Shown here in pieces: positions 43,048 to 62,191 of a DNA stretch of 64,000 nt. Origin of the DNA: a virus (taxonomy: Duplodnaviria; Caudoviricetes); the IMG/VR virus record IMGVR_UViG_3300037420_001796, positions 21,255 through 85,254 of that record, one strand, 5' to 3'. Below the pieces are notes generated by a model, which ran no database searches, was not told where the DNA came from, and saw nothing but the letters and a program-made list of their open reading frames with translations. The position numbers and the translations under genes were made by a program. Within the stretch, counting starts at the first letter, position 1. Every line of letters begins with the position of its first letter.

Positions 43048-43142
43048 CGTGGACTCCAAACACTGCGGCAAATTGCCGCTACACGTCGCTCGTCTTTCCT
43101 CTCCCTCCGCGCGCCCGGTGCGAGCAATCGGGCGGGGCTTCG

Positions 43143-43343
43143 TTAATTCAAAATATCCTTGAGGCCCTTGGTCGATTTCCTGTATCGATTCTCAAGTTCC
43201 TCGGTCGTCGGGGTGTCGTCGTCGCCTACGTCGTTATCGAAGTCGATCACTTCGAGATCGACGTTCTCCAGCAACGGAGAGACGAAGACAGATTGCAGAA
43301 CGCCGCCGTTGACGACGCAAACGATTCGTGCCTTGTTCACCAT
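43143..43343 (-). CDS. Small hypothetical protein
   Basis: MVNKARIVCVVNGGVLQSV..., with a GGAG ribosome-binding site. Confidence 0.55.
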   Translation of the reverse strand: MVNKARIVCVVNGGVLQSVFVSPLLENVDLEVIDFDNDVGDDDTPTTEELENRYRKSTKGLKDILN

Positions 43344-43344
43344 G

Positions 43345-43650
43345 TCAACTCTCCAGCGCCTCGATCGGGACCCACAACCAACCTTGAACCCACACGCCTT
43401 CGTCGGAGCGGCTCGCGGCCGCGGGTCGATCGATCTCGATCTCGTCGCTGCCGTGAATGTCCGTCGCGGCTTCGAGCTCGTCTTCGGTTGCGTCGTCGAG
43501 CGCTTCGATCCGCACGTCTTGCAGGTACACGATGTCGCCGTTTTCCATCTGGATGGAACCCGAGCCGATGCGGTCATTCAAGCCGCGCGCGAACTCTTCG
43601 ACGTCGACTTCGCCTTCGGGGTTGTCGGGGATTTCGACAATGAATCTCAT
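43345..43650 (-). CDS. Acidic hypothetical protein
   Basis: 101 aa, strongly Asp/Glu-rich, with an AAGGAG ribosome-binding site. Confidence 0.55.
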   Translation of the reverse strand: MRFIVEIPDNPEGEVDVEEFARGLNDRIGSGSIQMENGDIVYLQDVRIEALDDATEDELEAATDIHGSDEIEIDRPAAASRSDEGVWVQGWLWVPIEALES

Positions 43651-43661
43651 GTTGTTCTCCT

Positions 43662-43889
43662 TTATCCGTGGTCGTACAAACGCAGGTCGGGATGCGTGTC
43701 GTAGTCGGTGCTGCTGATCACCGCCGTGAGAGTGGCCGAGTAGGTCAACTCGTCATCTCGCACGCGCTCGTATTCGGCGCGCGCCACTTCGAAATCCTCG
43801 TGCACCGACCAGTCGTCACGCAACAGGTCCAGGTTGTCTGGGTCGTCGGCGTCGCGCACCGACGAAACCACGATGTATTCGAATGCCAT
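43662..43889 (-). CDS. Acidic hypothetical protein
   Basis: 75 aa. Confidence 0.5.
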   Translation of the reverse strand: MAFEYIVVSSVRDADDPDNLDLLRDDWSVHEDFEVARAEYERVRDDELTYSATLTAVISSTDYDTHPDLRLYDHG

Positions 43890-43892
43890 GTC

Positions 43893-45299
43893 TTACCCCA
43901 CTGCCCGCGCAAGGCTGTAGCCGGCCGTCGTGGCAACCCCGTCGGAGTTACCGGTAACGGACCTCTTGATGCATTCGGCGATGCGCCGCGCGAGCGCGAT
44001 CACCGGGCCGGGCACCACGCCCTGGCCGAGAACGACGTGCTTGACCGTGTTGGACAAGCCCGCCACGAGTGACGGATCGACGCCCTTCAAGCGGGCGTGC
44101 TCGTCGCCTGTGAACAGGCGAAGCAGATTCGGTTCCGTCGGGTGCTGCAGCTTCGGCTCGGTGCTGCGGTTCTTCGCGTAGCCCTTGCCGATCGTGCCGA
44201 CGGTCGTTGCGTGCTCGTCGACGATCTGCATGGCGAAGCCCTTGCCCGCGGCCTTGTCGCGCACTTCCTTGGCGCGCAGGCCCTCCATCGGCGACCAGCT
44301 TGACGGGTCGACATCCGGATCTAGGATTTCGCCGACGGTTCGGATGTACGGCTCTTCGGCCCTCAGGCCTTCGAGATCGAGCTGCACGCCGCGCGTAGCG
44401 CCCACCATGAACCAGCGCTGCCGTGCTTCGATCGCGCCGAAGTCCTTGCCGTTGAGCGTGACCTCATCGATCGAGTAGCCCATGTCACGCATGAACTGCC
44501 GGATGATCTGCGCGCTCGCGGTGTTGGCGTAGTCGGGCACGTTCTCCAGCACGAACACAGCTGGCTGCAGACGCACCATCAGCATCAGGAACGGCGCCAC
44601 AAGGTGTCCCACCTCGGGGTGTGCCTCCATCATGGAGATTCCGTTCTTGGACTTGCCCGACTTCGACGCGCCGGAGCAGGGGATGCCCGCGATAACGACA
44701 TCAGTCTTGCGCAAGCGGCCCATCGCCGCCGGGTCTTGAACGAACTCCTGCATGGGCGCGGCGATGAGCTGCGTGCCGTCGGTGATGACGGGGTTCGCTC
44801 CGCAGGCGTGCTCGACCAGGTCGGGATAGATCTCGTTCACGGCGGTCGTGCGCAATTGCACACCGGCTTCCTCGAAGCCATCGTGCACGGCCTTGTCGAT
44901 GATGCCGCCGCCGAACGCGATACCCGCCGCGGTGAGCGAGCCCTCCGCGACGTGCTCCTTCAGACGCTCGAATCGTTCTCGAACTGCAACCTCGGAGGCA
45001 AGCGGGCTGATACGGATCTCGTTCTCTCCGAACTCGACTTTCACAGCCTGCATGCCAGCGATGCCGGACAAGTCATTGGCCGCGTTAATGTCGATTACGG
45101 GAATAGTGTGGCCATTGATGTCCTTGCCGGACACGACCCGCGTGCCGTTGGGGTCGACCTGAAGCGTAATGATGGCGTCTTTCGCTTCAAGATTGAAGCG
45201 TGTTCCGCGCGTCATCCCGCACCGCTCGAGCATCCGGGATTGGAAGTACAGGCGCGGCGCGCCGCGGTGCACGCCCACGTTCTTGACGAGGTAGTCCAT
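43893..45299 (-). CDS. C5-cytosine DNA methyltransferase with an extra N-terminal AbrB-like domain
   Basis: Motif I variant AFGGG, motif IV AGIPC, motif VI LENV and motif VIII ARQRWF. No cognate endonuclease lies nearby. Confidence 0.85.
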   Translation of the reverse strand: MDYLVKNVGVHRGAPRLYFQSRMLERCGMTRGTRFNLEAKDAIITLQVDPNGTRVVSGKDINGHTIPVIDINAANDLSGIAGMQAVKVEFGENEIRISPLASEVAVRERFERLKEHVAEGSLTAAGIAFGGGIIDKAVHDGFEEAGVQLRTTAVNEIYPDLVEHACGANPVITDGTQLIAAPMQEFVQDPAAMGRLRKTDVVIAGIPCSGASKSGKSKNGISMMEAHPEVGHLVAPFLMLMVRLQPAVFVLENVPDYANTASAQIIRQFMRDMGYSIDEVTLNGKDFGAIEARQRWFMVGATRGVQLDLEGLRAEEPYIRTVGEILDPDVDPSSWSPMEGLRAKEVRDKAAGKGFAMQIVDEHATTVGTIGKGYAKNRSTEPKLQHPTEPNLLRLFTGDEHARLKGVDPSLVAGLSNTVKHVVLGQGVVPGPVIALARRIAECIKRSVTGNSDGVATTAGYSLARAVG

Positions 45300-45796
45300 C
45301 AGACCTCCTCGGGATCACCGACGGGTGCGAAGCGCATTTCCTGCACGAAGACCTTGTTGTCTTTCACGATGAGGTCCCAGCGATCTTCGCTTTCCTCGCC
45401 CTGCGCCTCTATGGTGCCGTTGACGGTGTGGTTAGCCTGCAGGAACGGCAGCTGCTTCTTCGCGAGCGCATCGGGCTGGAGGAAGTGCGTGATGATGTAT
45501 TTCATCCAGGCCGCGGCCTCATAGAACTTCTCGCCGTCGTCCCACACTATTTCCGCTCCATCATCGGTCGGCATCCAGTGGCACCACAGGCCGGGCTGCC
45601 CGTCGGGCGGCGCGTTGAAGTTCTCGATGTCCGGATCGCTGCCTTGACCCGCGAATCCTGACCCGTCGACGAAGTAGGGGCCGTTCGCTCGCTGCATGCG
45701 ACGGGTTTCGTTGAACTTCTTGAGGAACGCGATCTCTCCAGTGTTCAGCGGCGGGTCGATCGTGACCGAGCCAGAGAAATAGGTGGTGTACCCCAT
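45299..45796 (-). CDS. Conserved-looking hypothetical phage protein
   Basis: MGYTTYFSG...QPGLWCHW...EKFY; preceded by a class I element. Confidence 0.65.
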   Translation of the reverse strand: MGYTTYFSGSVTIDPPLNTGEIAFLKKFNETRRMQRANGPYFVDGSGFAGQGSDPDIENFNAPPDGQPGLWCHWMPTDDGAEIVWDDGEKFYEAAAWMKYIITHFLQPDALAKKQLPFLQANHTVNGTIEAQGEESEDRWDLIVKDNKVFVQEMRFAPVGDPEEV

Positions 45797-45843
45797 GCTG
45801 ATGGACTCCAAGTTGTGCGCCAAAGCGGCGCGGTGGTTGATGA

Positions 45844-46023
45844 TCAGTGGTTCAGTCGTTCGCAGAGCTCGTCGATCTCGTCAGGATCAAGCCCCTCGTG
45901 ATCGCCGCCATTCGTGAAGACGTCTTCGTCCATTGCTGGAGCATTGCCCTCGATCGCTTGTTGGACCATCCGCAAGCCGGCAAGGATTGCGTCACGTTCA
46001 CGGTCGTCGATGTCGTGATTCAT
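45844..46023 (-). CDS. Small hypothetical protein
   Basis: 59 aa ending DEIDELCERLN. Confidence 0.55.
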   Translation of the reverse strand: MNHDIDDRERDAILAGLRMVQQAIEGNAPAMDEDVFTNGGDHEGLDPDEIDELCERLNH

Positions 46024-46250
46024 GCCGACACCTCGTCGAGGATTCGAACCGGAGCCTGCGTCTCGATCCAGCAATGCGCGCCGCAGTCAAGCGGCTTTTC
46101 ACTGTGCACGAGCGTTGCAGGGCCGTCGATCGCCACTCGATGCGCGTTCTTGCGCCCCTTGTAGTTGCGAACGATGAGCGGAGGGTCGTTCCGACCCTCC
46201 TTTCGGTTCTTTCGGATCACGTGTTGATTCACGTGAAGGATTGTCTTCAT
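46020..46250 (-). CDS. Small hypothetical protein
   Basis: MKTILHVNQHVIRKN...LDCGAHCWIET. Confidence 0.6.
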   Translation of the reverse strand: MKTILHVNQHVIRKNRKEGRNDPPLIVRNYKGRKNAHRVAIDGPATLVHSEKPLDCGAHCWIETQAPVRILDEVSA

Positions 46251-46837
46251 GCGTGTGCTCCTGCTTCGAGTTGTTCATTGACGGTTTCCTCTCGCGAGGC
46301 GAGTGCGTTGACAAGCATCGACTCGAGTTCTTCCCTCGCGTATTCGAGCCCATACATGCCCCAGACCGAGTCGATGACGCGGCCGGCTTCGTCCTCGATC
46401 ACGACGCCGTAGACGTCGCCCCTGAGGTACATGTCAAAGGTCTCCACCTCGGCCTTCAGGGTCTCGAGGGCGCGCTTGCGAAGTGCGACGCTCATGCGGC
46501 TCTTGCCGAATTCCTTGAGCACCTTCTCGCGATCGGCGTAGACGAAACCGGACTGGCCGCTGTCCCACGGATCGTGGAACGGGTTCGATTCCGCAGCGCG
46601 GATCGTCGCGCCGCTGTGCACGTACGAGAACACAGGCATGCCGACCAGCTCGCCGGACCTGATGTCGGCGGCGATTTCGTCCATGCGAGCCTTGCTCACG
46701 TTCTTCGTGCCAAGCTTGTATCGCGCGCTGCTGTACGCGATCTCGCCCAGGTTGTCCCACTCGGAGGGACTCGTCGGGTCGCTGTCGTATTCGATGCGGG
46801 CAGTCAAGCCGCCGCGCTCGGTGCTGTATATGCTCAT
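46247..46837 (-). CDS. Hypothetical protein
   Basis: 196 aa; YVHSGATI...WDSGQSGFVY...YLRGDVYG...DSVWGMYG. Confidence 0.65.
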   Translation of the reverse strand: MSIYSTERGGLTARIEYDSDPTSPSEWDNLGEIAYSSARYKLGTKNVSKARMDEIAADIRSGELVGMPVFSYVHSGATIRAAESNPFHDPWDSGQSGFVYADREKVLKEFGKSRMSVALRKRALETLKAEVETFDMYLRGDVYGVVIEDEAGRVIDSVWGMYGLEYAREELESMLVNALASREETVNEQLEAGAHA

Positions 46838-47334
46838 GGCGCTTTCTCCTCGGGCGCGCGGTCCTCACGCGCCAGATCGATGACGGCAGGGTCGGGCTCC
46901 CACTCGTCGGGCATGGCAGGCGGCACGTTCTCGGCCTCCTTGCGAAGCAAGTTTGTCGCCGCGTCCAGATCACCCTTGTCGATGAGCTCCAGAACACTCT
47001 TGGCAAAGAGCGCTGACTCCTCCTGAACTTCGCTGAGCTCGATGCTCGTGTCGTCGAACCTGACGTATTCCGTCCAAGGAATGCTGCGACTGCCTTCGCT
47101 TTCGGAGTGGTACACGTTGTGCGGCACCTCGAACTCGTTCAGGACGTCGGTGATGTCGGACATGTTCCCGTAGTTGGCCTCGCCGTCGGACACGACGACG
47201 GTGCCCGAAGCGGCGCCGTCGTCTTCGATCGAGCGAGACCAGGTGTCTTTGAACCCGGCGGCGGCCTGCTTCACCTCGTCGATCTGCATCGCAGCGACAG
47301 GGAAGGTGACCGTGGTGTAGTAGCGAAAGCCCAT
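46834..47334 (-). CDS. Hypothetical protein
   Basis: 166 aa, acidic. Confidence 0.55.
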   Translation of the reverse strand: MGFRYYTTVTFPVAAMQIDEVKQAAAGFKDTWSRSIEDDGAASGTVVVSDGEANYGNMSDITDVLNEFEVPHNVYHSESEGSRSIPWTEYVRFDDTSIELSEVQEESALFAKSVLELIDKGDLDAATNLLRKEAENVPPAMPDEWEPDPAVIDLAREDRAPEEKAP

Positions 47335-47335
47335 G

Positions 47336-47605
47336 TCAGGCCTCCTCGGGGCCGATGAAGACGTGCCACACGAACGGCGGCTGCTGCACGGTGGCCACGT
47401 ATCTGACGTTGTCGGGGAAGGGGCTCGTCCAGCCCGTGCCGATGACGTGCACCTGACGCTTCACCTTCGGTGCGTCCGTATCGACGATGGCCCAGATCAT
47501 CAAGGTGCCGCCCTGCGGCTGCGCGGTAAGGATCTGGGCGCCGGAGGGCATCTCGATCTTGGCCCCCAATTCGCCGCTGGTTGGGAATTTCCAGATCGTG
47601 AGCAT
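47336..47605 (-). CDS. Small hypothetical protein
   Basis: MLTIWKF...IWAIVD...IGTG...VWHVF, with an AGGAGG ribosome-binding site. Confidence 0.6.
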   Translation of the reverse strand: MLTIWKFPTSGELGAKIEMPSGAQILTAQPQGGTLMIWAIVDTDAPKVKRQVHVIGTGWTSPFPDNVRYVATVQQPPFVWHVFIGPEEA

Positions 47606-47606
47606 G

Positions 47607-48212
47607 TCAGACCTCCGCCTCTTCCTCGCTGGCTTGCTCCTCGATTTGCTCGGCCAGCTTTTCCGCGTCGATGTCGGACTTGTACAGTTCCGACAGCGCA
47701 AGCGTTCGGAACAGGCGCACGCCGTAGTAGCCGCTGTTGCCGGGCTCGGACAACGCGGCATAGCGGCCGGGTGCCTTCGGGTTCTTGTTGAAGCCCTTGT
47801 AGATCTCGAGCGTCTTGTCGTCGATGTTGATGATGTACGCCCACTCGCAGAACAGCGAATCCTTCAGGAAGCCGGCGCTGTTGTCCAAGAATGGGACCTT
47901 GCCTTGGACGTAGGAGTCGATGTCACCCTGCGCGTTGCGCAGCAAGCAGTACCAGTCGTCCTCGGACTGGTTGCTCACACCCAGGTTCACGGTGCCGGCC
48001 TCGCGGCACTTCTGCTTCTGCTCTTCGGTCGGCGGCTTGCTGCTGTCGATGACTTCGAGTGAATCCGCGGCCGCGAGCAGCTGCTCGAACGGATACGTCT
48101 TGCACGCGACGATCATCGACAGGCCAAGGCCGGTCGGATAGCTGTCGTACTGGTTGTAGGCGAGCTTGTCCTCGCCATCGATGCGAAATCCGAATGCTCC
48201 ACGGGTTCCCAT
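47607..48212 (-). CDS. Hypothetical protein, MGTR family paralog 1
   Basis: MGTRG...YNQYDSYPTGLG...FCEWAYIINID; preceded by a class I element. Confidence 0.7.
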   Translation of the reverse strand: MGTRGAFGFRIDGEDKLAYNQYDSYPTGLGLSMIVACKTYPFEQLLAAADSLEVIDSSKPPTEEQKQKCREAGTVNLGVSNQSEDDWYCLLRNAQGDIDSYVQGKVPFLDNSAGFLKDSLFCEWAYIINIDDKTLEIYKGFNKNPKAPGRYAALSEPGNSGYYGVRLFRTLALSELYKSDIDAEKLAEQIEEQASEEEAEV

Positions 48213-48259
48213 GTTGAACTCCAAAGTTGTGCGCCAAATCGGCGCGGGTTGAAAACGTC

Positions 48260-48445
48260 TCAGTCCTGGTGAACTTCGACTCTTGCTTCGCGGCACTCGA
48301 TGTCTACGACTTCGTTGCCGCATGGTTCGCACAGGTTCTTGTGCTCCTCGTGATGCTCGTGCTCCGGGTAGTAGAACCCGCAGCCGGGACACTCAACGAG
48401 AAAGCCCATGAACCAGACCTTGCGCTGTTCGATGCGCTGGATCAC
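48260..48445 (-). CDS. Small Zn-ribbon protein
   Basis: CPGC...CEPC. Confidence 0.55.
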   Translation of the reverse strand: MIQRIEQRKVWFMGFLVECPGCGFYYPEHEHHEEHKNLCEPCGNEVVDIECREARVEVHQD

Positions 48446-48639
48446 GCTGCTCTCCTCGCGGCGCGCCGATCACGCTTGGCTTGCGCAGCGCGCATGCGCT
48501 CGAGGTCTTCAGGCGTCGTGTTCTTCTTCTCGAGCTCACGAAGGAGCTGACGAGAAGCCTTGCTCATCGCATTCCTCGTGCCGCCGAGGGTGAGCGCCGC
48601 GCCGTAAATCTGCGCGACGATGGACGGGGTCTTTTTCAT
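48442..48639 (-). CDS. Small basic protein
   Basis: MKKTPS..., with an Arg/Ala-rich end. Confidence 0.45.
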   Translation of the reverse strand: MKKTPSIVAQIYGAALTLGGTRNAMSKASRQLLRELEKKNTTPEDLERMRAAQAKRDRRAARRAA

Positions 48640-48706
48640 TTCGAGTTCCTTGTAGTTATTGCCCTCGCCCGCGCGTTGCACGCGGCTGCTCAAGCTGCCG
48701 TGTTGA

Positions 48707-49057
48707 TCAGGCCTTGGCCGGCTCCGCTTTGAAGAACTCCGCGGCGATGCTCTTCTTCGTGACCTTGATCACCATCTTGTCGATGGTGGGATCACGTTGC
48801 ACGCGCCGCAGCCAGTCGACTGGAAGCATTTCGCCGAAGTCGTCGCCTCCAAACTTCTCCGAAGAGTTTTCCCAGAAGTCCTTGTCCTTTCTGGGATCGC
48901 AGCCGGCGAAGTAGAAGATGCAGTTGCCTTTGTCTCCGGCCGAAGCCCCGACGTATGCGCCGTGGTCCTTGGCCATGAAGAAGTCGTTCAGGTTGTGCTT
49001 CTCGGTGAAACTCAGAAGCTCCAACACTTCTTTTCGGGAGAGGGTGATTTGCGGCAT
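48707..49057 (-). CDS. DUF3085-like protein
   Basis: KDHGAY...GCDP..D.DFW.....FGGDDFGE resembles the DUF3085 family as recalled; not verified by search. Confidence 0.6.
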   Translation of the reverse strand: MPQITLSRKEVLELLSFTEKHNLNDFFMAKDHGAYVGASAGDKGNCIFYFAGCDPRKDKDFWENSSEKFGGDDFGEMLPVDWLRRVQRDPTIDKMVIKVTKKSIAAEFFKAEPAKA

Positions 49058-49058
49058 G

Positions 49059-49436: not shown

Positions 49437-49650
49437 GTCAGTTCTCCTTCAAGCGTTTGGGACGATCTCAAGATCGCCAACGGTTTCGTAACTCTCGATC
49501 CGAATCCCGGGAAGTCGTGGTTCGATCTTCAGCTCTCCAAAGTGACCCACGGCTAGTTCGTCATGGGTCAATCCGTCGAAGCCGAGGATTCGCTCGTAGA
49601 CGTTGTCGGGGACGTCGAGTTCTATTTCGACAGTGGCGGAGAGCTTCACT

Positions 49651-50013: not shown

Positions 50014-50014
50014 G

Positions 50015-50533: not shown

Positions 50534-50534
50534 G

Positions 50535-50909
50535 TCAGTTCTCCGTCATGAGGATCAGCGCGAAGCGATCGCCCTCGTCGGCGAGGTACAAGTCGTATTC
50601 GCCGTCGGGTGTGTCGGTCCAGTCAATGTGCCGTGTCCAGATCGGCGGCTTGTCGTCATCGATCGTGAGATCGATATCGGCCCGGCCGTCCTTGGCCACG
50701 ATGTGCACGATGCCCGGCGTGTCGCCGCTCTTGCGCAGCGCGTCTGCGGCTTCGGTCGCAAGGATGTCGATCAACCACATCCAGCCGGCCTTGCCGAGCT
50801 CTTCGACGCCGTCGCTGTATTGGAAGTTGCGCCGGTACCAGTGGCGCACGAAGTAGTTCGCGCCGTTGCGGCTTTCCGCAAGGGCGTTCTTGAAGGCGAC
50901 TTCATCCAT
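50535..50909 (-). CDS. Hypothetical protein (DUF6876-like)
   Basis: YSDGV...WLID...IDWTD...LILMTEN; family recalled, not verified. Confidence 0.55.
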   Translation of the reverse strand: MDEVAFKNALAESRNGANYFVRHWYRRNFQYSDGVEELGKAGWMWLIDILATEAADALRKSGDTPGIVHIVAKDGRADIDLTIDDDKPPIWTRHIDWTDTPDGEYDLYLADEGDRFALILMTEN

Positions 50910-51486
50910 GTTGTTCTTCCTCCTGGCGCTCGAGGGCCTTGAGAAACTGCTCCTCGGTGGGTAGCGCGTCGAGGGCCCATCGACCAACGAAGCGCAGCTT
51001 TGAAAAGCGACCGTCACCCACGAACCCGGGGATGTCGCTCCAGTCCGTGTAGGCCTCGAGCACCCTCGAGTCGAGATCGACCACGTAGGCCCACTCGCAT
51101 CCGAAGAATCCGGGATCGTCGGCGAACGCGAGCTGGTTGAACAACTCGATGCCGGGTTCGCGGTCGTACACCAGCTGCAGAATTTCGCCGCCGGTATCAC
51201 GGTGAAGCTCCGGGAACTGCTCCTTGAACTTGTCGGAGATGTCGAACGACACCCACTGTCCTTCGGCGCCCACCGACTTCCATCGGTTGTCGACCTCGTC
51301 CTCGTCGATGAACTTGGCAGCGCGGACGTTCTCCACGAACCGTGCCGTCTTGGGCAACGTGTCGAGAGATCGCAGGAAGTTGAGGATCGTCCTGCCCTGA
51401 CCTTTGGGGTAGCCGTCCCACTGGCCGTATTGCGCAACCTTCGTCTGGCCGTCGACGAAAACGGCCGTCAGGTTTCTGGTTCCCAT
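50902..51486 (-). CDS. Hypothetical protein, MGTR family paralog 2
   Basis: MGTRN...YGQWDGYPKGQG...GCEWAYVVDLD; preceded by a class I element. Confidence 0.7.
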   Translation of the reverse strand: MGTRNLTAVFVDGQTKVAQYGQWDGYPKGQGRTILNFLRSLDTLPKTARFVENVRAAKFIDEDEVDNRWKSVGAEGQWVSFDISDKFKEQFPELHRDTGGEILQLVYDREPGIELFNQLAFADDPGFFGCEWAYVVDLDSRVLEAYTDWSDIPGFVGDGRFSKLRFVGRWALDALPTEEQFLKALERQEEEQHG

Positions 51487-51523
51487 GTTGGACTCCAAGT
51501 TGTGCGGCAAAGCGCCGCGGGTT

Positions 51524-52240
51524 TCAGATGTGGCAGTCGACGACCGTCACGAGCGTGCCTTCAGGAAGCGACCGCACGACTTCCCAGAACTTCTTGTTGT
51601 AGTCGCGATCGGTGGCCGGCGTTTTGGTGCTGACGCCAAACCAACCCATCTCACCCGGCTCGATCCACTCGCCCTTGTACAAAAGGGCGTACGTCGCGGC
51701 GCCGCGCTCGCCCTTGTACTGGGCGTATGCATCCGCGGAATCGAACGCAAGCACGTCCGTCATCAGATCTTCGGCGTTGAAGAAGAACGCGTCCTTGGCA
51801 CCGGCCGCTTCGCGAATCTGCTCCAGCAGCGGCTGCGAGTGATACTGATCACGCGCCGCATCCCAGGTCAGTTCTTCCTTCTGCACGCGATCGACGAACG
51901 AGCTCCACGGCGTGATGGATTTGCCCTCGACCAGCGGACGCACTTTCAGGTATACGTCTCGATGCTGATCCTTCTTCTCGTCGATCATCGCGTCCCAATC
52001 GATGTCCTCGACCAACGCGGAGTCGGCGTGCGTCTGGCTGTCCGGCGGAGGGCCGTCGTCGAGAAGGCTCATCTCTCCGAGCTCTCCGCTCATCGCGCCT
52101 TCCTTGAGTTTGAGCTTGCCCGTCCAGCGGCCGCCGATTTGGTACCAGTCCCATTTCGGGTTGTCGCCCAGCTGCTCCTCGAAAGGTGCAAGGGCTTTGT
52201 CGACGTCGTTGCTGACGACGAGTACGGTGAAGTGACTCAT
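51524..52240 (-). CDS. Hypothetical protein
   Basis: MSHFTVLV...NPKWDWYQIGGRW...W.EPGEMGWFG...VVDCHI; preceded by a class I element. Confidence 0.68.
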   Translation of the reverse strand: MSHFTVLVVSNDVDKALAPFEEQLGDNPKWDWYQIGGRWTGKLKLKEGAMSGELGEMSLLDDGPPPDSQTHADSALVEDIDWDAMIDEKKDQHRDVYLKVRPLVEGKSITPWSSFVDRVQKEELTWDAARDQYHSQPLLEQIREAAGAKDAFFFNAEDLMTDVLAFDSADAYAQYKGERGAATYALLYKGEWIEPGEMGWFGVSTKTPATDRDYNKKFWEVVRSLPEGTLVTVVDCHI

Positions 52241-52283
52241 TTGATGGACTCCAAAGAAGCGGCAACGCGCCGCGGGTTGATGA

Positions 52284-52753: not shown

Positions 52754-53269
52754 TCACATCATCGGGTTGAGATACGCGAGCTGCATCACTTCGTCGCGCG
52801 CCGCGGCCAGCCGCTCTTCGTCGAGCTGAGACTGCGGTGTCCAAGCGCCATCGATGAATTCGCCGCGCTCGCGCGCCAGGATCCGGCGCGAGGTCGCGAC
52901 AGGAACCGGGACCGAACTCGCGCTGTTCGTGTGAGGCTGCGCGTCTTCCCACCACGACACGGAAACCGTGCCCACGTACAAGTGGCGCGGCTCGATGTCG
53001 GCAAGGGCGGCTTCGCGGGTAGGGTACAGATCTCCGGGGTGTCGGTCGTACACGCCGGGCTTGCCGGCGCGGTGATAAAAGCCTGCTCGGTAGATGTTCA
53101 TCCATCCGGTGACGCGGGCTTTACCGCTCACCAATCTGATGAAATTGGCCAGCAGGTCTCGTAGACCTGCGGGCCAAAAAGAACGACTCGGCGATGTTCC
53201 GAACTCCGACGTGGAGAGCGTCTTTGGGCTCTTCCACAAAAGGCTGATGTCCGGGGCGGACCTGTTCAT
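52754..53269 (-). CDS. Hypothetical protein
   Basis: ATG directly after a class I element. Confidence 0.55.
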   Translation of the reverse strand: MNRSAPDISLLWKSPKTLSTSEFGTSPSRSFWPAGLRDLLANFIRLVSGKARVTGWMNIYRAGFYHRAGKPGVYDRHPGDLYPTREAALADIEPRHLYVGTVSVSWWEDAQPHTNSASSVPVPVATSRRILARERGEFIDGAWTPQSQLDEERLAAARDEVMQLAYLNPMM

Positions 53270-53782
53270 GTTGGACTCCAAAGTTGTAGGACAAAGCGTC
53301 CTGGGTGGTGTAGGAATTAACTTACGCAAATTCGCACGCGGGCTATTGTGCACGCGTGCCTGACCAGATGGTGACTTGTTGCAAATGGAAATTCACCACG
53401 ATGGTGAACTTCACACCATTGGTTAACCGTGCACGGAAAATTTAAAACGTCCGGGTTTGGGAATATCGCTACAGGCGTGACAGATTCACACATTCCCGAC
53501 AAAAGCATTTGGACAAACATATCGTCCACGGACTCCAAGGGTTGGGCCAAAGCGGCCCGGGTTTGCGCAGTGGCTATCTGACCCGTGTCAGGCTTTGTCG
53601 CCGCGCTCTCGACGGTCTGAATCGTCGAGGTTTTATTCTACTGGATGCGTGCACAGTGGTGGCAGGAGACCCGGCCGGTCACTGGGTTTTGAAAGTGCGC
53701 GCCAACTCGACGAGCGCCAGCAAGCGGGCTGTCGAGCGTCCCGGGAAACGCGCAACGAATGCGCGCAATTCTCGTGCGTTCA

Positions 53783-54227: not shown

Positions 54228-54286
54228 GTTGGACTCCAAAAATAGTTGTTGTAAGTGAGGGTCCGCACGATGCTCTGTCGCGCGGC

Positions 54287-54944: not shown

Positions 54945-55086
54945 GCGAACATCCTTCGTGCCTTGTCTTCGAGTTCCCGCTGGCGTTTCATGATCCGAGG
55001 CACATCCGGATGCAGCGGGTCGATCTCGCGCATCGCCCACCTGTAGAAGGCCTGCGCAACCATCACGTGAATCAGGTTGAGGATCT

Positions 55087-55401: not shown

Positions 55402-55537
55402 TTGCGTTTCACCACCCAGATTCGGTTCGAGTAGCCGTCGTGCTTGATTAAGCTGTCGCGAACGTAGTCCGCATCGCAGCCGTGATCGAAGAAGACGGTG
55501 TTGATATGTCGTGCGCCGACGAGAACGAGCCATGCGG

Positions 55538-55843
55538 TCATGATTCGTACCCCGGGCGCTCGTTACTGGTAACGCGCGGACGCGTGTCCCACTGGCCGCC
55601 GTCGCCTGTTGCGAAGCGCAGTCGGCCGCCAATGGTCGCGGGCTTGCCCTCGCGCACGGATCGCGATGCCGGCGGTGAAGGGCGCTGCAGCGGCGGCTTG
55701 CCAGCCAGCAGGTTTTCGATCTGCTTCGCCTGCCGCTCGTTCATCGCGCGCAGCTGCTGGTTCTTGTTCACCAGGATCAGGATGGTCGGCACCATCACGA
55801 TCACGATCAGGCTGAGGCCAAGGATGACGTTGTCGGGGGTCAT
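55538..55843 (-). CDS. Membrane-anchored hypothetical protein
   Basis: N-terminal transmembrane helix; AAGGAG ribosome-binding site. Confidence 0.55.
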   Translation of the reverse strand: MTPDNVILGLSLIVIVMVPTILILVNKNQQLRAMNERQAKQIENLLAGKPPLQRPSPPASRSVREGKPATIGGRLRFATGDGGQWDTRPRVTSNERPGYES

Positions 55844-56427
55844 GGTGTCTCCTTCGAATTCGTGTCCTGGTCAGACGTTGTCACGCCAAAGGCGGCTTTC
55901 AGAATCTCGCGCGCGAAGTAGCGGTGATCGTTCGGCCAGAAGCTGCCCATGCGATGCCAGATCGCATCAATTTGCGCGTCGGTCAGGCTCGGCGCTTCAA
56001 CCGTCTGCACGCCAAGAGCGGCTCGCCGCTTCAATTCCTCGGCATAGTTGCTGAGTGCGTGGCCGCCATATTCCGGCTCACGAGCTGCGGACCATTGCAG
56101 GGCCAACATGACGGCGTCATTGAAGGCTTGTTCGCGACCAGCGTCGAAACCGTCCGCGTAGTCGCTGTGCGTGTGCTCTTCGCTGATGGTTCCGATTCGA
56201 AACAGGTGGAGCGGCGGATCGCCCTCGAAGCGCATCAATCCGTCTTCCAGCAGGGTCGCGACGACGCCCTTGCACTTATTCACGTCGTCGTCGTCCTCGG
56301 GGCCGTCCTCATCGAACGCCGCGCCGAACATCGCACGCTGCACAGCCGCCAGCACTCCCGCCTCGTCGGTCGCGTACTCGATGTGGGCTTTGTTCTCGTC
56401 GTCCATCGCGATGAAAAGGAACTGCAT
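55840..56427 (-). CDS. Hypothetical protein
   Basis: MQFLFIAMDD..., with a GGAGG ribosome-binding site. Confidence 0.55.
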   Translation of the reverse strand: MQFLFIAMDDENKAHIEYATDEAGVLAAVQRAMFGAAFDEDGPEDDDDVNKCKGVVATLLEDGLMRFEGDPPLHLFRIGTISEEHTHSDYADGFDAGREQAFNDAVMLALQWSAAREPEYGGHALSNYAEELKRRAALGVQTVEAPSLTDAQIDAIWHRMGSFWPNDHRYFAREILKAAFGVTTSDQDTNSKETP

Positions 56428-56900
56428 CACACGCCTCCGTTTCGAGTTACATCGGCCCGTGAGCCGTTTTGCGATTCGCCCACGCCAGCGGGCACTGACG
56501 GCTTGAACAGGGCGCACGCCCACTCGGCCTCAATGGAGTTGAGCCATTGGCGGCTGTATCCGGCCTGCAGGTCCATCGCGCCGTCCTGGTAGTGCCTTTC
56601 GGCTTTCGGGCGCGCTCGATCCTCCCAAACCTCCAGCAGCGCGCTGAAGTGGCCGTGCATGTTCTCGACCGCCTCGCGGTCGCGTTCGGTCAGGTGGCTC
56701 TGTGCGCGGGCGTCGCTGGTTCCACGAGAGTGCCACCCTGACTCGAAGCCCATGCGATATACGCACGCGAGCAGGCTGCGCATCGGCCCGGCGAACCTCT
56801 CTTTCTGCACGCTGTCATCGAACCCCCGGAACGTCGCTTCCTGCGCGTTGGCGAGGTAGGAATCCATCACGGCGCGCTCGCGTTCGTAGTCGCTCATCAT
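56427..56900 (-). CDS. Hypothetical protein
   Basis: 157 aa with a GGAGG ribosome-binding site. Confidence 0.55.
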   Translation of the reverse strand: MMSDYERERAVMDSYLANAQEATFRGFDDSVQKERFAGPMRSLLACVYRMGFESGWHSRGTSDARAQSHLTERDREAVENMHGHFSALLEVWEDRARPKAERHYQDGAMDLQAGYSRQWLNSIEAEWACALFKPSVPAGVGESQNGSRADVTRNGGV

Positions 56901-57337
56901 TTGCCTCCGTTACCCTGCGGCCGAGCCGCGTCAGACGTTTCGCCCACGCCATAGGCGTCGAGGTAGTGCCGAGCTTCTTCCACGGTGCCGTGGAACGACA
57001 CGAGCGGGTGCTTGATCCACGATCCGATGGGTGCGCAGTTCCGCGTGTCCGGGATGAAGTCGAGGACAACGGCGACTGGCTTGCCCATTCCGAGCGCCAT
57101 GCCACATTCGACGTAGGCGCCCTTCAACGGGAAGTCGTCGCACTCAGCGAAGAGGATCACGTAGTCGGCTGCACGAATCTCAGCCTCAATGCGCGCCCAC
57201 AACTCCGTCAGGTCGGCGGTTTCACCCGGACCGGCCTCATCAATCCATGTGCTGTTGATCGGCCATCCAGCGGCGCGCAACCGCTTCCACATAGCCGGGC
57301 GCTCGGGCACGCTGGCCCTTGATGCGACGTAGATCAT
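56897..57337 (-). CDS. Nucleoside 2-deoxyribosyltransferase-like protein
   Basis: IYVAS...IRAADYVIL...GAYVECGMALGMGKPV matches the NDT/RCL flavodoxin-like pattern. Confidence 0.68.
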   Translation of the reverse strand: MIYVASRASVPERPAMWKRLRAAGWPINSTWIDEAGPGETADLTELWARIEAEIRAADYVILFAECDDFPLKGAYVECGMALGMGKPVAVVLDFIPDTRNCAPIGSWIKHPLVSFHGTVEEARHYLDAYGVGETSDAARPQGNGGK

Positions 57338-58350
57338 TGCTGACCTCCGGAGGGCGTTTGCACGCCAGCAAGGTGTTGCCGCAGTGCTTCGCGCTTCATG
57401 TCGGGGTTGATGTCCTCGCCGTCCGTGTAGCAGGCCCGCACGCGCTCATCGCCCCACTGAGCGGCAAGCTCTATCGCCCTGTCCACCCAGCTCTGCGCTT
57501 CAACCGGACGCACGCCATAGGTGGCGAGCGCACGCTCGACAACGACCTTGATCTGGCCGAAGGTCAGTATCGGCTCGTGCGGGTTGCTGGCGAATGGGAA
57601 GTCCCTGTGAATCAGCGCCCACAAGTCGCCGTCGCTGAACGTGCGACGAGTCGGTTCCACGCCAAGGGAGTGCTTGGCCGCTCTGGCAGCCCGCTGCACT
57701 GTTTCCTCGCAAGTGGGCTTGACTCGTGCAGAGGGCTCCACGCCAAGAGCGGTCGCCTTCATCGGACAGTCCGCGTGAGGCCCTGGGCACGGCACCTTGA
57801 AGCGGTCCACCCTGCATTTCGGACAGATGTAACTCGGGGCTCGCGACGTATCCACGCCAGCCTTACGTCGCGGCACCAACGTGTCGCTGGGCTTTGCAAG
57901 CGGGCACCCTTCGCAGCGCGTGCCGATCAGCATCGTTTGATGGCAGCACTCGGCGATCGCATCCGGCATGTCAGCGGCGGTCTGTGCTTCTCGTAGCAGC
58001 AGGGAACCAGGCGAGTTGTCGGCATACAGCACAGAGCCTGACATGCCAGCATCGGGTGACCGGTGAGTCATGTCATAGTCGCCACCGTTGTGCTCGCCCA
58101 CGCGAACTACCGGCGAGCCGAAGACGCGTTCCACCGCTGCACGCAGCTTGGAGCGCCACCAGTAGCGCGGCTTGCCCACGGGGTGCTCTCCGAACATCAC
58201 GCCATCGAGTTCGTCGGCACCGTAGAGGAATTGCAGGATCGAATTGAGCTCCTGCGTCATGGTCGGAGTTTGAGCACTCATCTCAATTCCGAAGGTGTTG
58301 TTCAAGGGTCTCTTGCGCTTCGCGCGCGCAGGCCCTCCACGACGCGACAT
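57334..58350 (-). CDS. Hypothetical mosaic protein (true start probably near 58280)
   Basis: Long ORF in the operon direction with Cys clusters CEGC and CPKC. Confidence 0.5.
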   Translation of the reverse strand: MSRRGGPARAKRKRPLNNTFGIEMSAQTPTMTQELNSILQFLYGADELDGVMFGEHPVGKPRYWWRSKLRAAVERVFGSPVVRVGEHNGGDYDMTHRSPDAGMSGSVLYADNSPGSLLLREAQTAADMPDAIAECCHQTMLIGTRCEGCPLAKPSDTLVPRRKAGVDTSRAPSYICPKCRVDRFKVPCPGPHADCPMKATALGVEPSARVKPTCEETVQRAARAAKHSLGVEPTRRTFSDGDLWALIHRDFPFASNPHEPILTFGQIKVVVERALATYGVRPVEAQSWVDRAIELAAQWGDERVRACYTDGEDINPDMKREALRQHLAGVQTPSGGQQ

Positions 58351-58699
58351 CGATGAGGGCGTTCGGGCCCCCGAGCTCTTCCTCGGTTGCGGAAAGGACC
58401 TGGCCTGCGTACTTGGAAAGGGCCTCGATGACGAAGCCCTGCATCAACGGACCCGACTTCGCGAACTCCATCAGGCGATAGACGAACTCGGTGTTGGTGA
58501 GGTGCCCGTCGACGAACGCCTCGGCCTCGGCGATCGCGTCAGCTTGCGCCGTCTCGCCGTCCGAGAGCCAGAACACTTCGTTGCCCATGCGCAAGTCGCC
58601 GTTGTACTTGCGAACCTCGTAGACGCCTTCGTTCTTGTCGAAGAAGACATCAGCGGCCCTGCCGGTCTCGAGATTCTTGCGTCCGACGAAGTACTTCAT
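58283..58699 (-). CDS. Hypothetical protein
   Basis: 138 aa with an ATGA-type overlap. Confidence 0.55.
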   Translation of the reverse strand: MKYFVGRKNLETGRAADVFFDKNEGVYEVRKYNGDLRMGNEVFWLSDGETAQADAIAEAEAFVDGHLTNTEFVYRLMEFAKSGPLMQGFVIEALSKYAGQVLSATEEELGGPNALIDVASWRACAREAQETLEQHLRN

Positions 58700-59127
58700 G
58701 CCGGCACCTTCTTGGGCTTGCGATACTCGAGGTCGTAGGACGCGGCCACTCTTTGCATTCGCTCCTCGAATTCGAGAATGCCGTCCGAGTTGTCATGCGC
58801 GCCTTGGATTCTCGAGAGAAGTCTGGCCGTTTCCAGGTTGAGCACATCGATCCCTGCGATCACGAGCATGTCCGCGAGCAGGTTCACTTTCGAGTTGTCC
58901 GAAAGGCCACCGCGTATGGCGAGGTCGATGAGACGCGCAGCAGATGCGTTCTCCACGGCGCCGTCATAGACGTTGTCGGGGATCAGCTGGCCGACGCCGC
59001 ATGCAAGGGTCTTGCCGTCCTTCTCGAGTCGGTAGCGGCAACCCATGTGGACGCTCTGTTGCGCGAGGGCGCCCTGCGCGCGAATGCCATTCAGGGCTTG
59101 ATCGAAAATCTGCTGGTGTGTCAGCAT
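58696..59127 (-). CDS. Hypothetical protein
   Basis: CRYR....LACGVGQLI...Q.AHD; preceded by a class I element. Confidence 0.62.
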   Translation of the reverse strand: MLTHQQIFDQALNGIRAQGALAQQSVHMGCRYRLEKDGKTLACGVGQLIPDNVYDGAVENASAARLIDLAIRGGLSDNSKVNLLADMLVIAGIDVLNLETARLLSRIQGAHDNSDGILEFEERMQRVAASYDLEYRKPKKVPA

Positions 59128-59166
59128 GGTTGGACTCCAAAGTTGTGCGCCGAATGCGGCGCGGGT

Positions 59167-59505
59167 TCAGGCTGTAGCCTCTTCCTTCTGCAGCGTGCGG
59201 GGTTCGAACACCAACCTCGGCGCCTTGCCCACAAGTCGCACCATCTCGTCGACGGCGTCGTCGCCGAGGTCTCGGATCGGCTTCAGGACCGCATCAGGTG
59301 CCCAGCCCGTAGTGCCAGCTGGTACCAGGCGGTGGTCTAGGCCCATGACACCGCTTTGCAGCATCTCGATTTCCCAACACGGCCCCTGCGGACCACAGAA
59401 TGCCGTCATGAGCGGGCTCACCTCGTACGGGCCAATGATTCGGCACAGTCGATCTCGATTCGGTCCCTCGATGAAGCGGGCGGTGTCGTCGGGCTTGCAG
59501 TTCAT
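59167..59505 (-). CDS. Hypothetical protein
   Basis: MNCKPDD...PDAVLKPIRD. Confidence 0.55.
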   Translation of the reverse strand: MNCKPDDTARFIEGPNRDRLCRIIGPYEVSPLMTAFCGPQGPCWEIEMLQSGVMGLDHRLVPAGTTGWAPDAVLKPIRDLGDDAVDEMVRLVGKAPRLVFEPRTLQKEEATA

Positions 59506-59936
59506 GACGTCAGCTCCTCGAAACGACGCTCCAACCTGTTCGCCACCACTTGGTAGTCGGTGAGGTTGTAATAGTCCGGCATGCTGAAATCGCAGTTGGC
59601 GCCGCGAGACGCGAACATGTTGGGGTCTCCGAACAAATAGTTGGCGACATCCCAATCGACGAGTAGTTTCCCGTCCGACTCAAGGCACGGCGATCCGGGC
59701 TTTCCATCGAAAGAGCAGGACCCACCGGGGTTCGTGAACGCCGCAAAACGACCCACACCCTTCGCGGCAAACTCCGGCCAGCTCACAAGCCAGCCGCCGA
59801 AGCATGCGATCGTGCCGCAGCCCGTCGGATAGCTCCACGAGCCCAGGTCCACCGACTTCGGCTTCACCTTGTGCCAGAGCATCGCCGCGAGAAGGACGTT
59901 CTCGATCTGTTCATCTTTCGAAAGTTGATTCATCAC
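59502..59936 (-). CDS. Hypothetical protein
   Basis: CGTIACFGGW...YLFG. Confidence 0.55.
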   Translation of the reverse strand: MMNQLSKDEQIENVLLAAMLWHKVKPKSVDLGSWSYPTGCGTIACFGGWLVSWPEFAAKGVGRFAAFTNPGGSCSFDGKPGSPCLESDGKLLVDWDVANYLFGDPNMFASRGANCDFSMPDYYNLTDYQVVANRLERRFEELTS

Positions 59937-60748
59937 ACCATCTCCAATTCGGGGACGTTCTTGAACTGGCCCGACTCACGTGTGCCCCTGAGCACGTTAG
60001 CCAGACGTTTTTCGATCTCCTCACCGCCTGCCGGCCGCTTCACCTCGGACACCAAGTGCGCGAGATAGATCTCGAGCGGCAGCAGCGTCTCGTTGAAGAT
60101 GTTCGGGATCTGCAGCGGGCCCTCGCTCGTTGCGACCTGCTCTCCGTTACCGGTAACGAGCGGCTCCCACTCCATCCAGTCGAACGGATCGAAGGCGACG
60201 ATCAAGCCGTCGGCCAGGTGCCCGCGAACCCAGTTCGCCCACACTTCCGAGCCCAGCGACTCCGTGTCGCCGTTCAAGCGGTGCGCGATGAACTCGCCGC
60301 CCTTGAGCTCGCCCAGATACGGCATGCCGTCGTCTCCGAACAGGCCGTCACGCGCACGCACGTATCGCGGCGGCCGCTCGTCTTCAGGATCACTTCGGTG
60401 CAACTGCTGCACGCGGGCTCGGTACAGGGCGAAGTTCGTGTTGATCCACTCGTCTTTGGCGGGAAACGGCAGCTCAGTCGTGATGAACTGCGGCGCGCCG
60501 AACGGACCTGAAATGACCGCGGTCCACGCGCTCACGTCATCGGAGTCGAATTCGACCCAGTCGCCGGTGCCCACGAACATGTGCGCGGACGGCTGAGGGC
60601 CGCCGGCATTCGGATACTCGACGCCGTCGACGCCGCAACGAATCATGTTGCCGGTGTGCGAGTAACGCACCCAATGCGGCACCGGGCAGAAGTCGTACGC
60701 GGTACGAATCGGCGGGAACAAGCCGAAGCGGTGGCGGTAGCCTTTCAT
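59933..60748 (-). CDS. Hypothetical protein
   Basis: 271 aa in an overlapping gene chain. Confidence 0.55.
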   Translation of the reverse strand: MKGYRHRFGLFPPIRTAYDFCPVPHWVRYSHTGNMIRCGVDGVEYPNAGGPQPSAHMFVGTGDWVEFDSDDVSAWTAVISGPFGAPQFITTELPFPAKDEWINTNFALYRARVQQLHRSDPEDERPPRYVRARDGLFGDDGMPYLGELKGGEFIAHRLNGDTESLGSEVWANWVRGHLADGLIVAFDPFDWMEWEPLVTGNGEQVATSEGPLQIPNIFNETLLPLEIYLAHLVSEVKRPAGGEEIEKRLANVLRGTRESGQFKNVPELEMV

Positions 60749-61137
60749 GCGGACACCTCTTCGACAAGTTCATTGAGGACGCTCACGATGTCTTCGTGCG
60801 TCGTATGCATGCCGATTCCGTCGTTGAATCGGTACAGCTGTTCGGATGCCGTGCGATAGAAATCCGACTCAGACATTCGGCGGTTGACGACCTGCGCGAG
60901 CCGCTTGGCCAGGTCGCTGGCGTTGACCGCGCGGTAGACGTCGTCGATATCTTCGGCGTCGCATGCGAGTCGCTCCACATGGGCGACTGCGCCGCCGAGG
61001 CAGAAGCAGATTGCACCCTGCGAGCACGGGTTCACCGCGATGCGGTAGTCGTCTCGCGCCATCGTCCCGCGCGTCCAGCGCGTTGGATCAGAAAGCAGAT
61101 CGCGCAGCGCGACGGCCTGCGACTTCAGGTTTGACAT
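60745..61137 (-). CDS. Hypothetical protein (DUF6197-like)
   Basis: WTRG..AR...CFCLGGA...FND; preceded by a class I element. Confidence 0.6.
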   Translation of the reverse strand: MSNLKSQAVALRDLLSDPTRWTRGTMARDDYRIAVNPCSQGAICFCLGGAVAHVERLACDAEDIDDVYRAVNASDLAKRLAQVVNRRMSESDFYRTASEQLYRFNDGIGMHTTHEDIVSVLNELVEEVSA

Positions 61138-61182
61138 TTGAGGACTCCTCAGTTGTGCGGCAAAGTGCCGCGGGGTTTGTGT

Positions 61183-61938
61183 TCAGCCCTTGAACGCCGG
61201 CACAGTGTCAAGCCACTTCGAGCCCTTCGAGCGAAGCTTGATCAGGGCCTGCACCGCTGCTTCGGCTGCGTAGCGGCGAATCTTGTCGCGGTCCTTCGGG
61301 GACTCGTACGACTTGGCGAGATAGTCGATGGCCACTCCGAGCCGATCTGAGCTCGGAGATTCGCTGTTGAACAGCGACTGAAGCTGCTCGGCAGCCTCTG
61401 CTATGTAGAAGAGGCCGCCCGTCGAGTGGACTGGAAACGAATCACGGATGTCCCACACTCGCTCAGGGAAGCCTTCGAGGGCTTTCTCCGCTTGGGCCTG
61501 AGTCTTCACGCGCTCGAATTTGTCGGCGTACGAGATCAGTTCAGCGCGTATGTCCTTGCTGATCTCCGTATTGCGTGCAGCCTTGCGCAGCGCCAGAGGC
61601 AGCGCGCCATTCACAACACCCACCGCAGTGAAGCGCAGGAACTTGAGGCCGTCGATGTGCTCGCTTCCAAGCTGCGCGATGGCAACGCGAATCAAGCCGC
61701 GCGCACGCGCCTTGGGGCTCTCCCAGTGCTGGTCGTTCAGGTTGATCTTGAACAGGCGCACGTCACCATCGACGCACGGCGGATAATCGTCGTGCGGCAG
61801 GCCCATCGCGAAGCACACTGCAGCTTCGACGCACATGTGGCCAGGTGTGGGGTTGCCAAGGCCGTGGCTCAGGCCCTTGCGAACGACGCTTGCGACTTTC
61901 ACGGCGGTGTCGCGCGTGACTTCGGGAATCGATTCCAT
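61183..61938 (-). CDS. Hypothetical protein
   Basis: MCVEAAV...PPCV...LND; preceded by a class I element. Confidence 0.6.
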   Translation of the reverse strand: MESIPEVTRDTAVKVASVVRKGLSHGLGNPTPGHMCVEAAVCFAMGLPHDDYPPCVDGDVRLFKINLNDQHWESPKARARGLIRVAIAQLGSEHIDGLKFLRFTAVGVVNGALPLALRKAARNTEISKDIRAELISYADKFERVKTQAQAEKALEGFPERVWDIRDSFPVHSTGGLFYIAEAAEQLQSLFNSESPSSDRLGVAIDYLAKSYESPKDRDKIRRYAAEAAVQALIKLRSKGSKWLDTVPAFKG

Positions 61939-62191
61939 CTCTGGACTCCTAATCAAGTGCGGCAAAGCGCCGCGGGGTTGGTACCGTTACTGGTAACGGC
62001 GGATGATCATTCGAATTCGGCTCAGACCCAGAACGAGCGTCCGCAGCCTTCGACGCACTGGTACTCGTCGAGACGCTCCGTGGGCGGGAATTGGGCGAGG
62101 CATTGTTCCTCGGCTACCCACTCCACGTTGACATCGCGGGGCATGACAGTTCCGCAGAACGGGCAGACCTGCGGTCGCGCTTCGGGCTCGC

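Follow-up and report, generated by a model that had tools for sequence, protein, structure and literature searches.

A covarying hairpin joined to a fixed ribosome-binding word heads accessory gene blocks of an uncultured phage

In an uncultured phage represented by an 85,254-bp IMG/VR virus record (IMGVR_UViG_3300037420_001796, here G000; 127-bp terminal overlap), blocks of accessory genes are headed by copies of a compact unit in which a small hairpin with compensatory base changes is joined to a fixed ribosome-binding site (RBS) word just before the start codon. The analysis centred on a window of 64,000 nucleotides, bases 21255-85254 of the record, and positions below are those of the window unless they are marked as genome positions. 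What is demonstrated is selection on the structure of the hairpin, a bias towards the sense strand, the position of the units, the absence of a host-type promoter and the lineage-specific co-inheritance of hairpin and word. That the unit acts at the level of RNA, whether as a punctuation mark, as an operator or through attenuation, appears probable to us. The reading we favour, at a rough probability of 0.45, is that it is a factor-independent mRNA punctuation module consisting of a barrier hairpin and a standard start site.

Architecture of the unit

The unit is about 40 nt long and has five parts: an A/C-rich 5' flank, a G+C-rich 5-bp stem whose loop of 5-6 nt ends in TT, a G-poor spacer, a word containing GGAGTCC, and the start codon (ATG or GTG), which follows after 0-6 nt. 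The spacer is unpaired, 6-9 nt long and usually reads ACAAC plus two or three T, while the ribosome-binding word is 13 nt long and fixed. An earlier, sequence-only reading of this DNA had listed ten copies on the minus strand, and all ten are present, 0-6 nt before an ATG or GTG, with four different stem sequences that pair perfectly. The set nevertheless proved to be larger than ten, since G000 holds 13 full copies (the ten plus window 27654-27692, genome 3445-3485 and genome 1738-1776) and five further copies of the word that lack the hairpin. The resulting 18 words all lie on the gene strand and 0-6 nt before starts, and with at most one mismatch allowed the word occurs 31 times in the window, compared with 12.4 ± 3 times in shuffles.

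A covariance model built from 24 unit copies returned E values of 3e-13 to 9e-7 for the ten copies first described. Its hits in G000 with E<1e-4 fall on the gene strand only, the copies spanning E 3e-13 to 5e-5. Searched against Rfam 15, the unit matched no family at the gathering threshold, and at E values up to 1 there was a single unrelated weak match to a long non-coding RNA. The description of the word as an extended Shine-Dalgarno (SD) sequence, on the other hand, did not hold: the letters 3' of GGAG add no pairing to 16S rRNA, and instead complete an 11-nt dyad. Two other ideas about the word were rejected. A second small helix inside it (4 bp, 3-nt loop) rests on one double compensatory copy and nine G-U cases, which is too weak, and a GANTC (CcrM-type) methylation site was dropped, since there is no avoidance of GANTC (296 sites) and the methylase encoded by the phage is of the C5 cytosine type.

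The hairpin is conserved as a structure

To the covariance model 36 copies were aligned, in which 95.5% of the stem cells are paired and four of the six stem pairs show changes on both sides. The covariation score for the whole counted structure was 0.384 as against 0.153 in shuffles, a value that none of 500 shuffles reached, and covariation in the stem is strong. When the partner strand was slid by one column, pairing fell to about 40-50%. Two further covariation analyses agree, although on sets that had been chosen for intact stems. A scan anchored on the unstructured 3' part only (ACAAC, 2-3 nt, GGAGTYC), covering G000 plus related genomes and contigs, gave a perfect 5-bp stem in fixed register at 14 of 30 sites, compared with 2% of random positions, and a 4-bp stem plus a wobble pair at a further seven of the 30.

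Not all positions of the stem behave alike. Of 36 copies, 34 have G-C as the outer pair, and 31 of 32 have C-G as the inner one, whereas the three middle pairs vary freely among G-C, C-G, A-U and U-A. Stem positions 3 (G) and 5 (C) had been called invariant; this stands for position 5, but position 3 varies in the wider family, and the invariant letters are the G at position 1 and the C at position 5. As the earlier reading had it, a sixth pair alternates between G-U (20 copies), A-U (10 copies) and G-C (one copy), and the pairing therefore works on the sense strand only. At the orthologous loci L047:9464-9502 and L053:1288-1324, with flanks that are 84.5% identical, the stems differ by the loss of one complete base pair. 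Predicted folding gave hairpin energies of -5 to -10 kcal/mol and formation probabilities of 0.9-1.0 in context; the loops are pyrimidine-rich and end in UU. Judged by these comparisons, the hairpin is under selection for its structure and not for its sequence, and the alignment indicates that it is read on the sense strand.

Units stand at block boundaries without host-type promoters

Within the blocks of the accessory arm, genes overlap or sit 1 nt apart and use ordinary embedded SDs. The blocks contain 1-13 genes and are separated by 37-95 nt, with a few larger gaps, and the 13 units are spread over 25 kb. Fourteen gaps in the arm measure at least 30 nt: nine hold full units (ten units, one gap holding two), three the word only and two neither, while no overlapping or 1-nt junction has a unit (0 cases). 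At 51487-51524 and 59129-59168 the units fill gaps of 37 and 39 nt right after a TGA, exactly as had been described. The proteins encoded downstream are mostly of unknown function and mutually unrelated, except for one pair with 28% identity, which rules out paralogy of the downstream genes as the explanation of the repeat.

The unit might be thought of as a promoter cassette acting at the DNA level, with a non-canonical promoter served by a phage factor or an alternative sigma factor and a hairpin that occupies the spacer, an arrangement found in many promoter-early stem-loops (PeSLs) of T4-type phages. [quoted passage not shown] We nonetheless consider this unlikely. Sigma-70-like sites number 3 in 20 kb, compared with 3.4 expected, none of them at any unit, and gaps of 37-47 nt are too short to accommodate -35, -10, transcription start and SD leader, which bears out the earlier claim that two of the units leave no room for such a promoter. 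A sigma region-2 domain was not found among the G000 proteins in a search with a valid control; a T7-type RNA polymerase likewise gave no family match in G000, but there the control genomes were silent too. Neither compensatory pairing nor sense-strand G-U pairs are needed in a promoter spacer, and in one relative (G004, described below) a U-tract takes the place of the 3' flank. Moreover, the unit at genome 1738-1776, which heads a 485-aa gene (genome 277-1734), has a separate canonical sigma-70 promoter about 30 nt upstream (L007:1802-1829, minus strand; 10/12 match, spacer 16), and its hairpin therefore lies in the 5' leader.

With regard to termination, the units could be weak intrinsic terminators or attenuators that impose a gradient of expression on the early operon, with a phage antiterminator overriding them. 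A U-tract does follow the stem directly in the copies of G004 and in three copies of G000 (genome 3445-3485, genome 4032-4073 and window 52243-52279). In ten of the 13 full copies of G000, however, a five-base A/C spacer separates the stem from a mere two or three U, stems of 5-6 bp are short for termination, and the G000 array has no excess of terminator-like sites (17 versus 16.2 expected), all of which makes this reading very improbable. The earlier statement that U-tracts are lacking thus applies to most copies, but not to the U-rich tails at 52243-52279 and genome 3445-3485.

The replication genes use a second leader, which is rich in AAC triplets and has a different SD. This family was seen on the minus strand at 16620-16649, 23990-24010, 29226-29250, 35903-35925 and 38408-38430, where AAN triplets follow one another up to an SD of the AGAGG type, and it is distinct from the hairpin units. 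Such a series of AAN triplets is the form that the distal face of Hfq binds.

Relatives and turnover of the accessory genes

A pattern scan combined with a portal-protein search identified five related viral records and several metagenome contigs. In exact-pattern scans, the viral contigs yielded G001 as the only true relative and the metagenome contigs yielded the additional contigs; among genome contigs the unit pattern had a single match, in a low-GC Paludibacter metagenome-assembled genome, which was rejected as a chance hit. G001 (71 kb) is syntenic with G000 at 45-65% protein identity and carries about ten units with new stems. Six or seven units are present on the 45.7-kb contig behind L047, and one to three on each of L041, L042, L046, L050, L052 and L053. 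G004, whose portal protein is 55% identical, has about 12 copies of a variant in which a U-tract comes directly after the same flank and a covarying 5-bp hairpin, with a different RBS word behind it (L085:367-2192 and L088:9500-15720), and its terminator-like sites number 20, compared with 8.1 ± 2.6 expected. Since hairpin and word are present or absent together across G001, G004 and two more relatives, G002 and G003, they travel together and are specific to certain lineages. Both contig ends of G004 also carry arrays of an 18-bp tandem repeat (L085:1-210 and L088:16500-16756, about 20 copies), which may be terminal repeats or assembly wrap-around.

The genes of the accessory arm turn over to such an extent that G000, G001, G004 and L047 have almost none in common in spite of the common unit, and around 48213-48251 the only similarity to G001 at the DNA level is the unit itself. 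The sequences of L042 and L047 run collinear, 78-84% identical, apart from a stretch of about 377 nt, found in L042 only, that holds two small open reading frames (ORFs). The left junction of this insert falls inside the RBS word of a unit and the right junction at the GGAG of the next gene, so that a gene which a unit heads in L047 shows translational coupling to the newcomer in L042. In the same way, a unit heads the gene at 49651-50013 in L042, whereas in G000 that gene lies within a block. Both observations fit a picture, drawn from one breakpoint case, of a portable header behind which genes are inserted.

These are also the observations that speak for the units being recombination anchors, kept mainly for the swapping of gene cassettes through short homology, as the sequence-only reading had offered as an option. 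One cassette gain or loss does break exactly at the RBS word. Selection for homology would, however, hold the stems identical, yet they vary by compensatory change, and because such changes lower the identity between copies, anchoring cannot be the primary selected function. In addition, the breakpoint is a single case whose second junction is an ordinary coupled SD and not a unit, and any repeated sequence may bring swapping about as a by-product. We therefore find the anchor reading quite unlikely. A related idea would make the hairpins structure-specific single-strand recombination sites, miniature analogues of integron attC, and the early arm a cassette array. Promoterless co-oriented genes, boundary hairpins that keep structure instead of sequence, pairing on one strand, the near-total gene turnover between relatives and the one insertion exactly behind a unit are all features that fit this idea, which nevertheless seems highly improbable to us; known attC sites are compared below.

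Proposed function

As a punctuation module, the unit would be a cis-acting feature of the polycistronic early mRNA that heads each translationally coupled gene block. The small, fast-folding hairpin would serve as a structural full stop that closes the upstream block; it could shield the 3' end of that block from exonucleases, or the 5' end of the downstream block after cleavage in the spacer, and it would prevent base pairing between the start site and coding RNA upstream of it. Spacer and word would then supply every block head, whatever its gene, with the same strong and independent initiation site. These effects on decay, processing and initiation are all inferred. The spacer fits the published preference of RNase E, which is for a purine and any base before the cut and A/U, U, U after it. 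A terminator-plus-RBS cassette was probably the origin of the unit, and this form persists in G004 and in the three G000 copies with a U-tract.

Three points weigh against this interpretation. The predicted accessibility of the SD is uneven, ranging from 0.04 to 0.74 across copies in partition-function folding, which gives no support for uniform insulation. G002 and G003, although their portal proteins are 65% identical to that of G000, have neither hairpin nor word. Finally, the outer G-C pair, the inner C-G pair, the loop end and the 5' flank are near-invariant across lineages, and as a mere barrier would not obviously need these, they hint at a specific reader, for which they are the strongest point.

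Such a reader is the essence of the alternative in which the unit is a multi-copy RNA operator, where a protein or endoribonuclease of phage or host origin recognises the hairpin, the word or both and switches the early blocks jointly, in the manner of T4 RegA/RegB, Mu Com or N-boxB. The outer and inner pairs, the loop end, the closing purine-U pair and the A/C-rich flank are fixed while the mid-stem varies, as is usual for protein-bound hairpins. The RBS word is conserved past what 16S pairing explains, and hairpin and word are gained and lost jointly between lineages. The use of the word on early blocks as opposed to the AAC-rich leader on replication genes also recalls the early-specific GGAG targets of RegB (PMC3014915). 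On the other side, G004 keeps the hairpin although its RBS word is wholly different, and no candidate factor was found, the immediate-early proteins of G000 matching no family. Phyletic profiling for a trans-acting factor returned ThyX, an endonuclease VII/HNH-like protein and two co-occurring unknowns, P0126 and a 131-aa protein, for which an Atlas search provided no usable lead and which gave none towards RNA binding. P0126 (35944-36480, minus strand) is encoded between the helicase and primase genes and belongs to a widespread family of 160-180 aa with 128 homologues; its fold is predicted with confidence as mostly beta (pLDDT 92), and a comparison with the PDB gave no meaningful match, with Foldseek E values of 0.01 or more and a VIA-align Z of 6.4 at best. 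It is because of the lack of a candidate factor that we rank the operator second to the punctuation module, as a possibility on the doubtful side. Of the interpretation given in the sequence-only reading, a structure-selected hairpin that is read on the sense strand is supported, but the postulated regulon requires a trans-acting factor, and none was identified.

Units and neighbouring features in the window

All copies in the window lie on the minus strand. The unit at 61940-61979 (stem GCGGC, pentaloop; E 1.8e-9) precedes a 251-aa gene at 61183-61938, and the one at 61139-61177, whose RBS word is altered on both sides of the dyad, precedes a DUF6197 gene (60745-61137). The gap-filling unit at 59129-59168 has the stem GCGCC and a 6-nt loop. 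Two further units lie at 53527-53564 (stem GGGCC, before a 70-aa ORF starting with GTG) and 53270-53308 (stem AGGAC, before the gene 52754-53269). The unit at 52243-52279, with its U-rich, terminator-like spacer, stands before the gene 51524-52240, and the second gap-filling unit, at 51487-51524, before the gene 50902-51486. The top model score was obtained for 48213-48251, which heads the gene 47607-48212. The unit 45800-45837 precedes the gene 45299-45796, and the ortholog of this gene in G001 has a unit with an identical stem. The unit at 43048-43085 has diverged flanks and precedes a DUF7227 gene (42337-43047), and the divergent full unit at 27654-27692 (E 5e-5) precedes the DNA polymerase gene, its hairpin lying within the end of the upstream ORF. 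The word occurs without the hairpin at 54228-54240, 42267-42279 (here with the ACAAC spacer), 41927-41939 and 41186-41198 (before the DNA ligase gene), and as a variant lacking the family hairpin at 17017-17029.

The window encodes, among others, a 2018-aa tape-measure protein (the largest), a large terminase, a family-A DNA polymerase, a primase, a helicase, a ligase and an SbcC-like nuclease. As this set of structural and replication genes is accompanied by a tyrosine integrase, the gene content identifies the phage as a temperate siphovirus. According to a gene call based on codon usage, the late genes occupy the plus strand at genome 5.8-37.2 kb, and the minus strand holds all the others, which run from 5.4 kb across the ends of the record to 37.2 kb. 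The DNA runs with the phage are soil and rhizosphere metagenomes, and no RNA run was listed for it; the reads of four of the DNA runs contained identical phage plus noise from other organisms and no informative variants or joints. Its nearest cultured relatives are distant (about 27% identity in DNA polymerase), and a search of GenBank phages at the DNA level gave no match. The host is probably a proteobacterium. An early gene (L007:2726-3022, minus strand) carries a DUF3567 domain, and DUF7227, of which homologues are encoded by many long contigs, has one homologue in an Aquabacterium metagenome-assembled genome; these are weak hints of a host within the Burkholderiales.

Two other motifs are repeated in G000. 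One is an oriented motif of 9-13 nt that reads CCCGACAAC in the sense direction, often with GTC after it, and its 8-nt core occurs 35 times genome-wide: 24 in-gene sense copies, all in one frame (Pro-Asp-Asn), three antisense and eight intergenic copies. Sites are found in plus-strand reading at 55829-55837, 63562-63570, 43621-43629 and 49602-49610, in the other orientation at 6842, 11627, 13831 and 15231, and in a cluster at genome 3623-3855, the orientation flipping with the direction of transcription. The same motif ranks first among the repeated 10-mers of G002 and G003, and in G001 it occurs in intergenic tandem clusters; the hairpin unit looks as though a hairpin had split this motif, and the AAC-rich leaders begin with it. 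A Chi-like site, a priming site and an RNA signal are candidate roles. The other motif is a 12-bp dyad, GTTAC-NN-GTAAC, present four times in the window (43947-43958, 55562-55573, 60146-60157 and 61986-61997), compared with 0.01 expected, and also at genome 1206, 4583 and 5415. Its copies lie mostly inside early genes, one of them just upstream of the unit 61940-61979, and in form it resembles an operator of the multi-site repressor or stoperator type.

Significance

Descriptions of start-associated repeats in actinobacteriophages go back to 2011 but have come without a mechanism. The covarying units offer a cleaner handle on such repeats, and they widen the phenomenon to phages whose hosts belong to another phylum. 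The hairpin is minimal and its covariation unambiguous, so that a role at the RNA level can be tested with simple compensatory mutants, and natural variants are at hand with and without a U-tract (G004 versus G000) as well as with and without the hairpin. The unit is also a candidate for a new RNA motif, one that Rfam lacks, and it suggests how phages keep newly acquired genes expressed, in that new genes could drop in behind a portable block header.

Comparison with known systems

Several known elements resemble the unit in single respects. The promoters of N4-type phages (5-7-bp stem, 3-nt loop, read by a phage RNA polymerase) agree in hairpin form, but the polymerase search was blank with silent controls, and the present phage is a siphovirus. 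The nut sites of lambda occur once or twice per operon near the promoter, with boxA upstream and a 5-bp stem under a purine-rich, GNRA-like pentaloop, in contrast to 13 sites with pyrimidine-rich loops here. The arrangement of an intrinsic terminator, a hairpin and then a U-tract, is lacking in ten of the 13 G000 units and present in the G004 variant. Integron attC sites are imperfect palindromes of 57-141 nt, with R and L boxes and extrahelical bases, and they bound single promoterless cassettes in arrays headed by IntI, attI and Pc, whereas the hairpin here spans 15-16 nt, the blocks hold 1-13 genes, and the only integrase of G000 lies 27 kb away, adjoining the presumed attP.

Intercistronic hairpins are familiar as the RNase III sites of T7, as REP-type 3' stabilisers and as 5' stem-loop stabilisers of the ompA type, and RNase III needs stems of about 20 bp. 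The likeness is in some ten structured sites that punctuate a long phage transcript between genes, where a processed hairpin would protect the neighbouring message; the difference is that those sites are not tightly fused to a fixed RBS word. As with the targets of T4 RegB and RegA (PMC3014915), many early genes here have in common a GGAG-type initiation region that sets them apart from later genes and could be read by one factor. The RegB and RegA sites are, however, unstructured and A-rich and have no hairpin, and a homologue of RegA or RegB was not detected. Among the parallels drawn in the sequence-only reading, stoperators, boxB and RegB are analogies only.

The closest known kind is the start-associated sequence (SAS) with its ESAS, and the PeSL comes next. 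Like the units, PeSLs lie between the stop codon and the next SD of small accessory genes in hypervariable early regions, and have a G+C-rich stem-loop, and they mark sites of gene insertion and deletion, as one unit may do here; terminator activity of their stem-loops has been shown (PMC2839356). A PeSL differs in being about 100 bp long and in having a strong sigma-70 promoter and an A+T-rich upstream region, the units being about 40 nt long without either, and of shuffling between copies in the PeSL manner one indel with a junction at the RBS word was observed, in metagenome contigs only.

SAS and ESAS are known from cluster K mycobacteriophages and cluster EF Microbacterium phages (PMC3203893, PMC7302621, PMC11373665). 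The sequences are unrelated, with only the GGAG core in common; the hosts of SAS phages are actinobacteria, as opposed to what is probably a proteobacterium here, and by the SAS search rule of at most two mismatches to the consensus (PMC3203893, PMC12699233) the present word fails. An ESAS consists of two imperfect 17-bp inverted repeats with a variable spacer and SigA-like -35 and -10 elements, its departures not keeping RNA pairing, whereas the unit here has a 5-6-bp hairpin with compensatory change and no promoter hexamers. In kind, however, the agreement is extensive. Both systems have a 13-nt word of one orientation with an SD core, conserved past its pairing to 16S rRNA and symmetric in its outer parts. 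This word lies 3-9 nt before the starts of 10-19 non-structural genes of a temperate siphovirus, it fronts genes that are unrelated to each other, and about half to two thirds of its copies have a second element just upstream.

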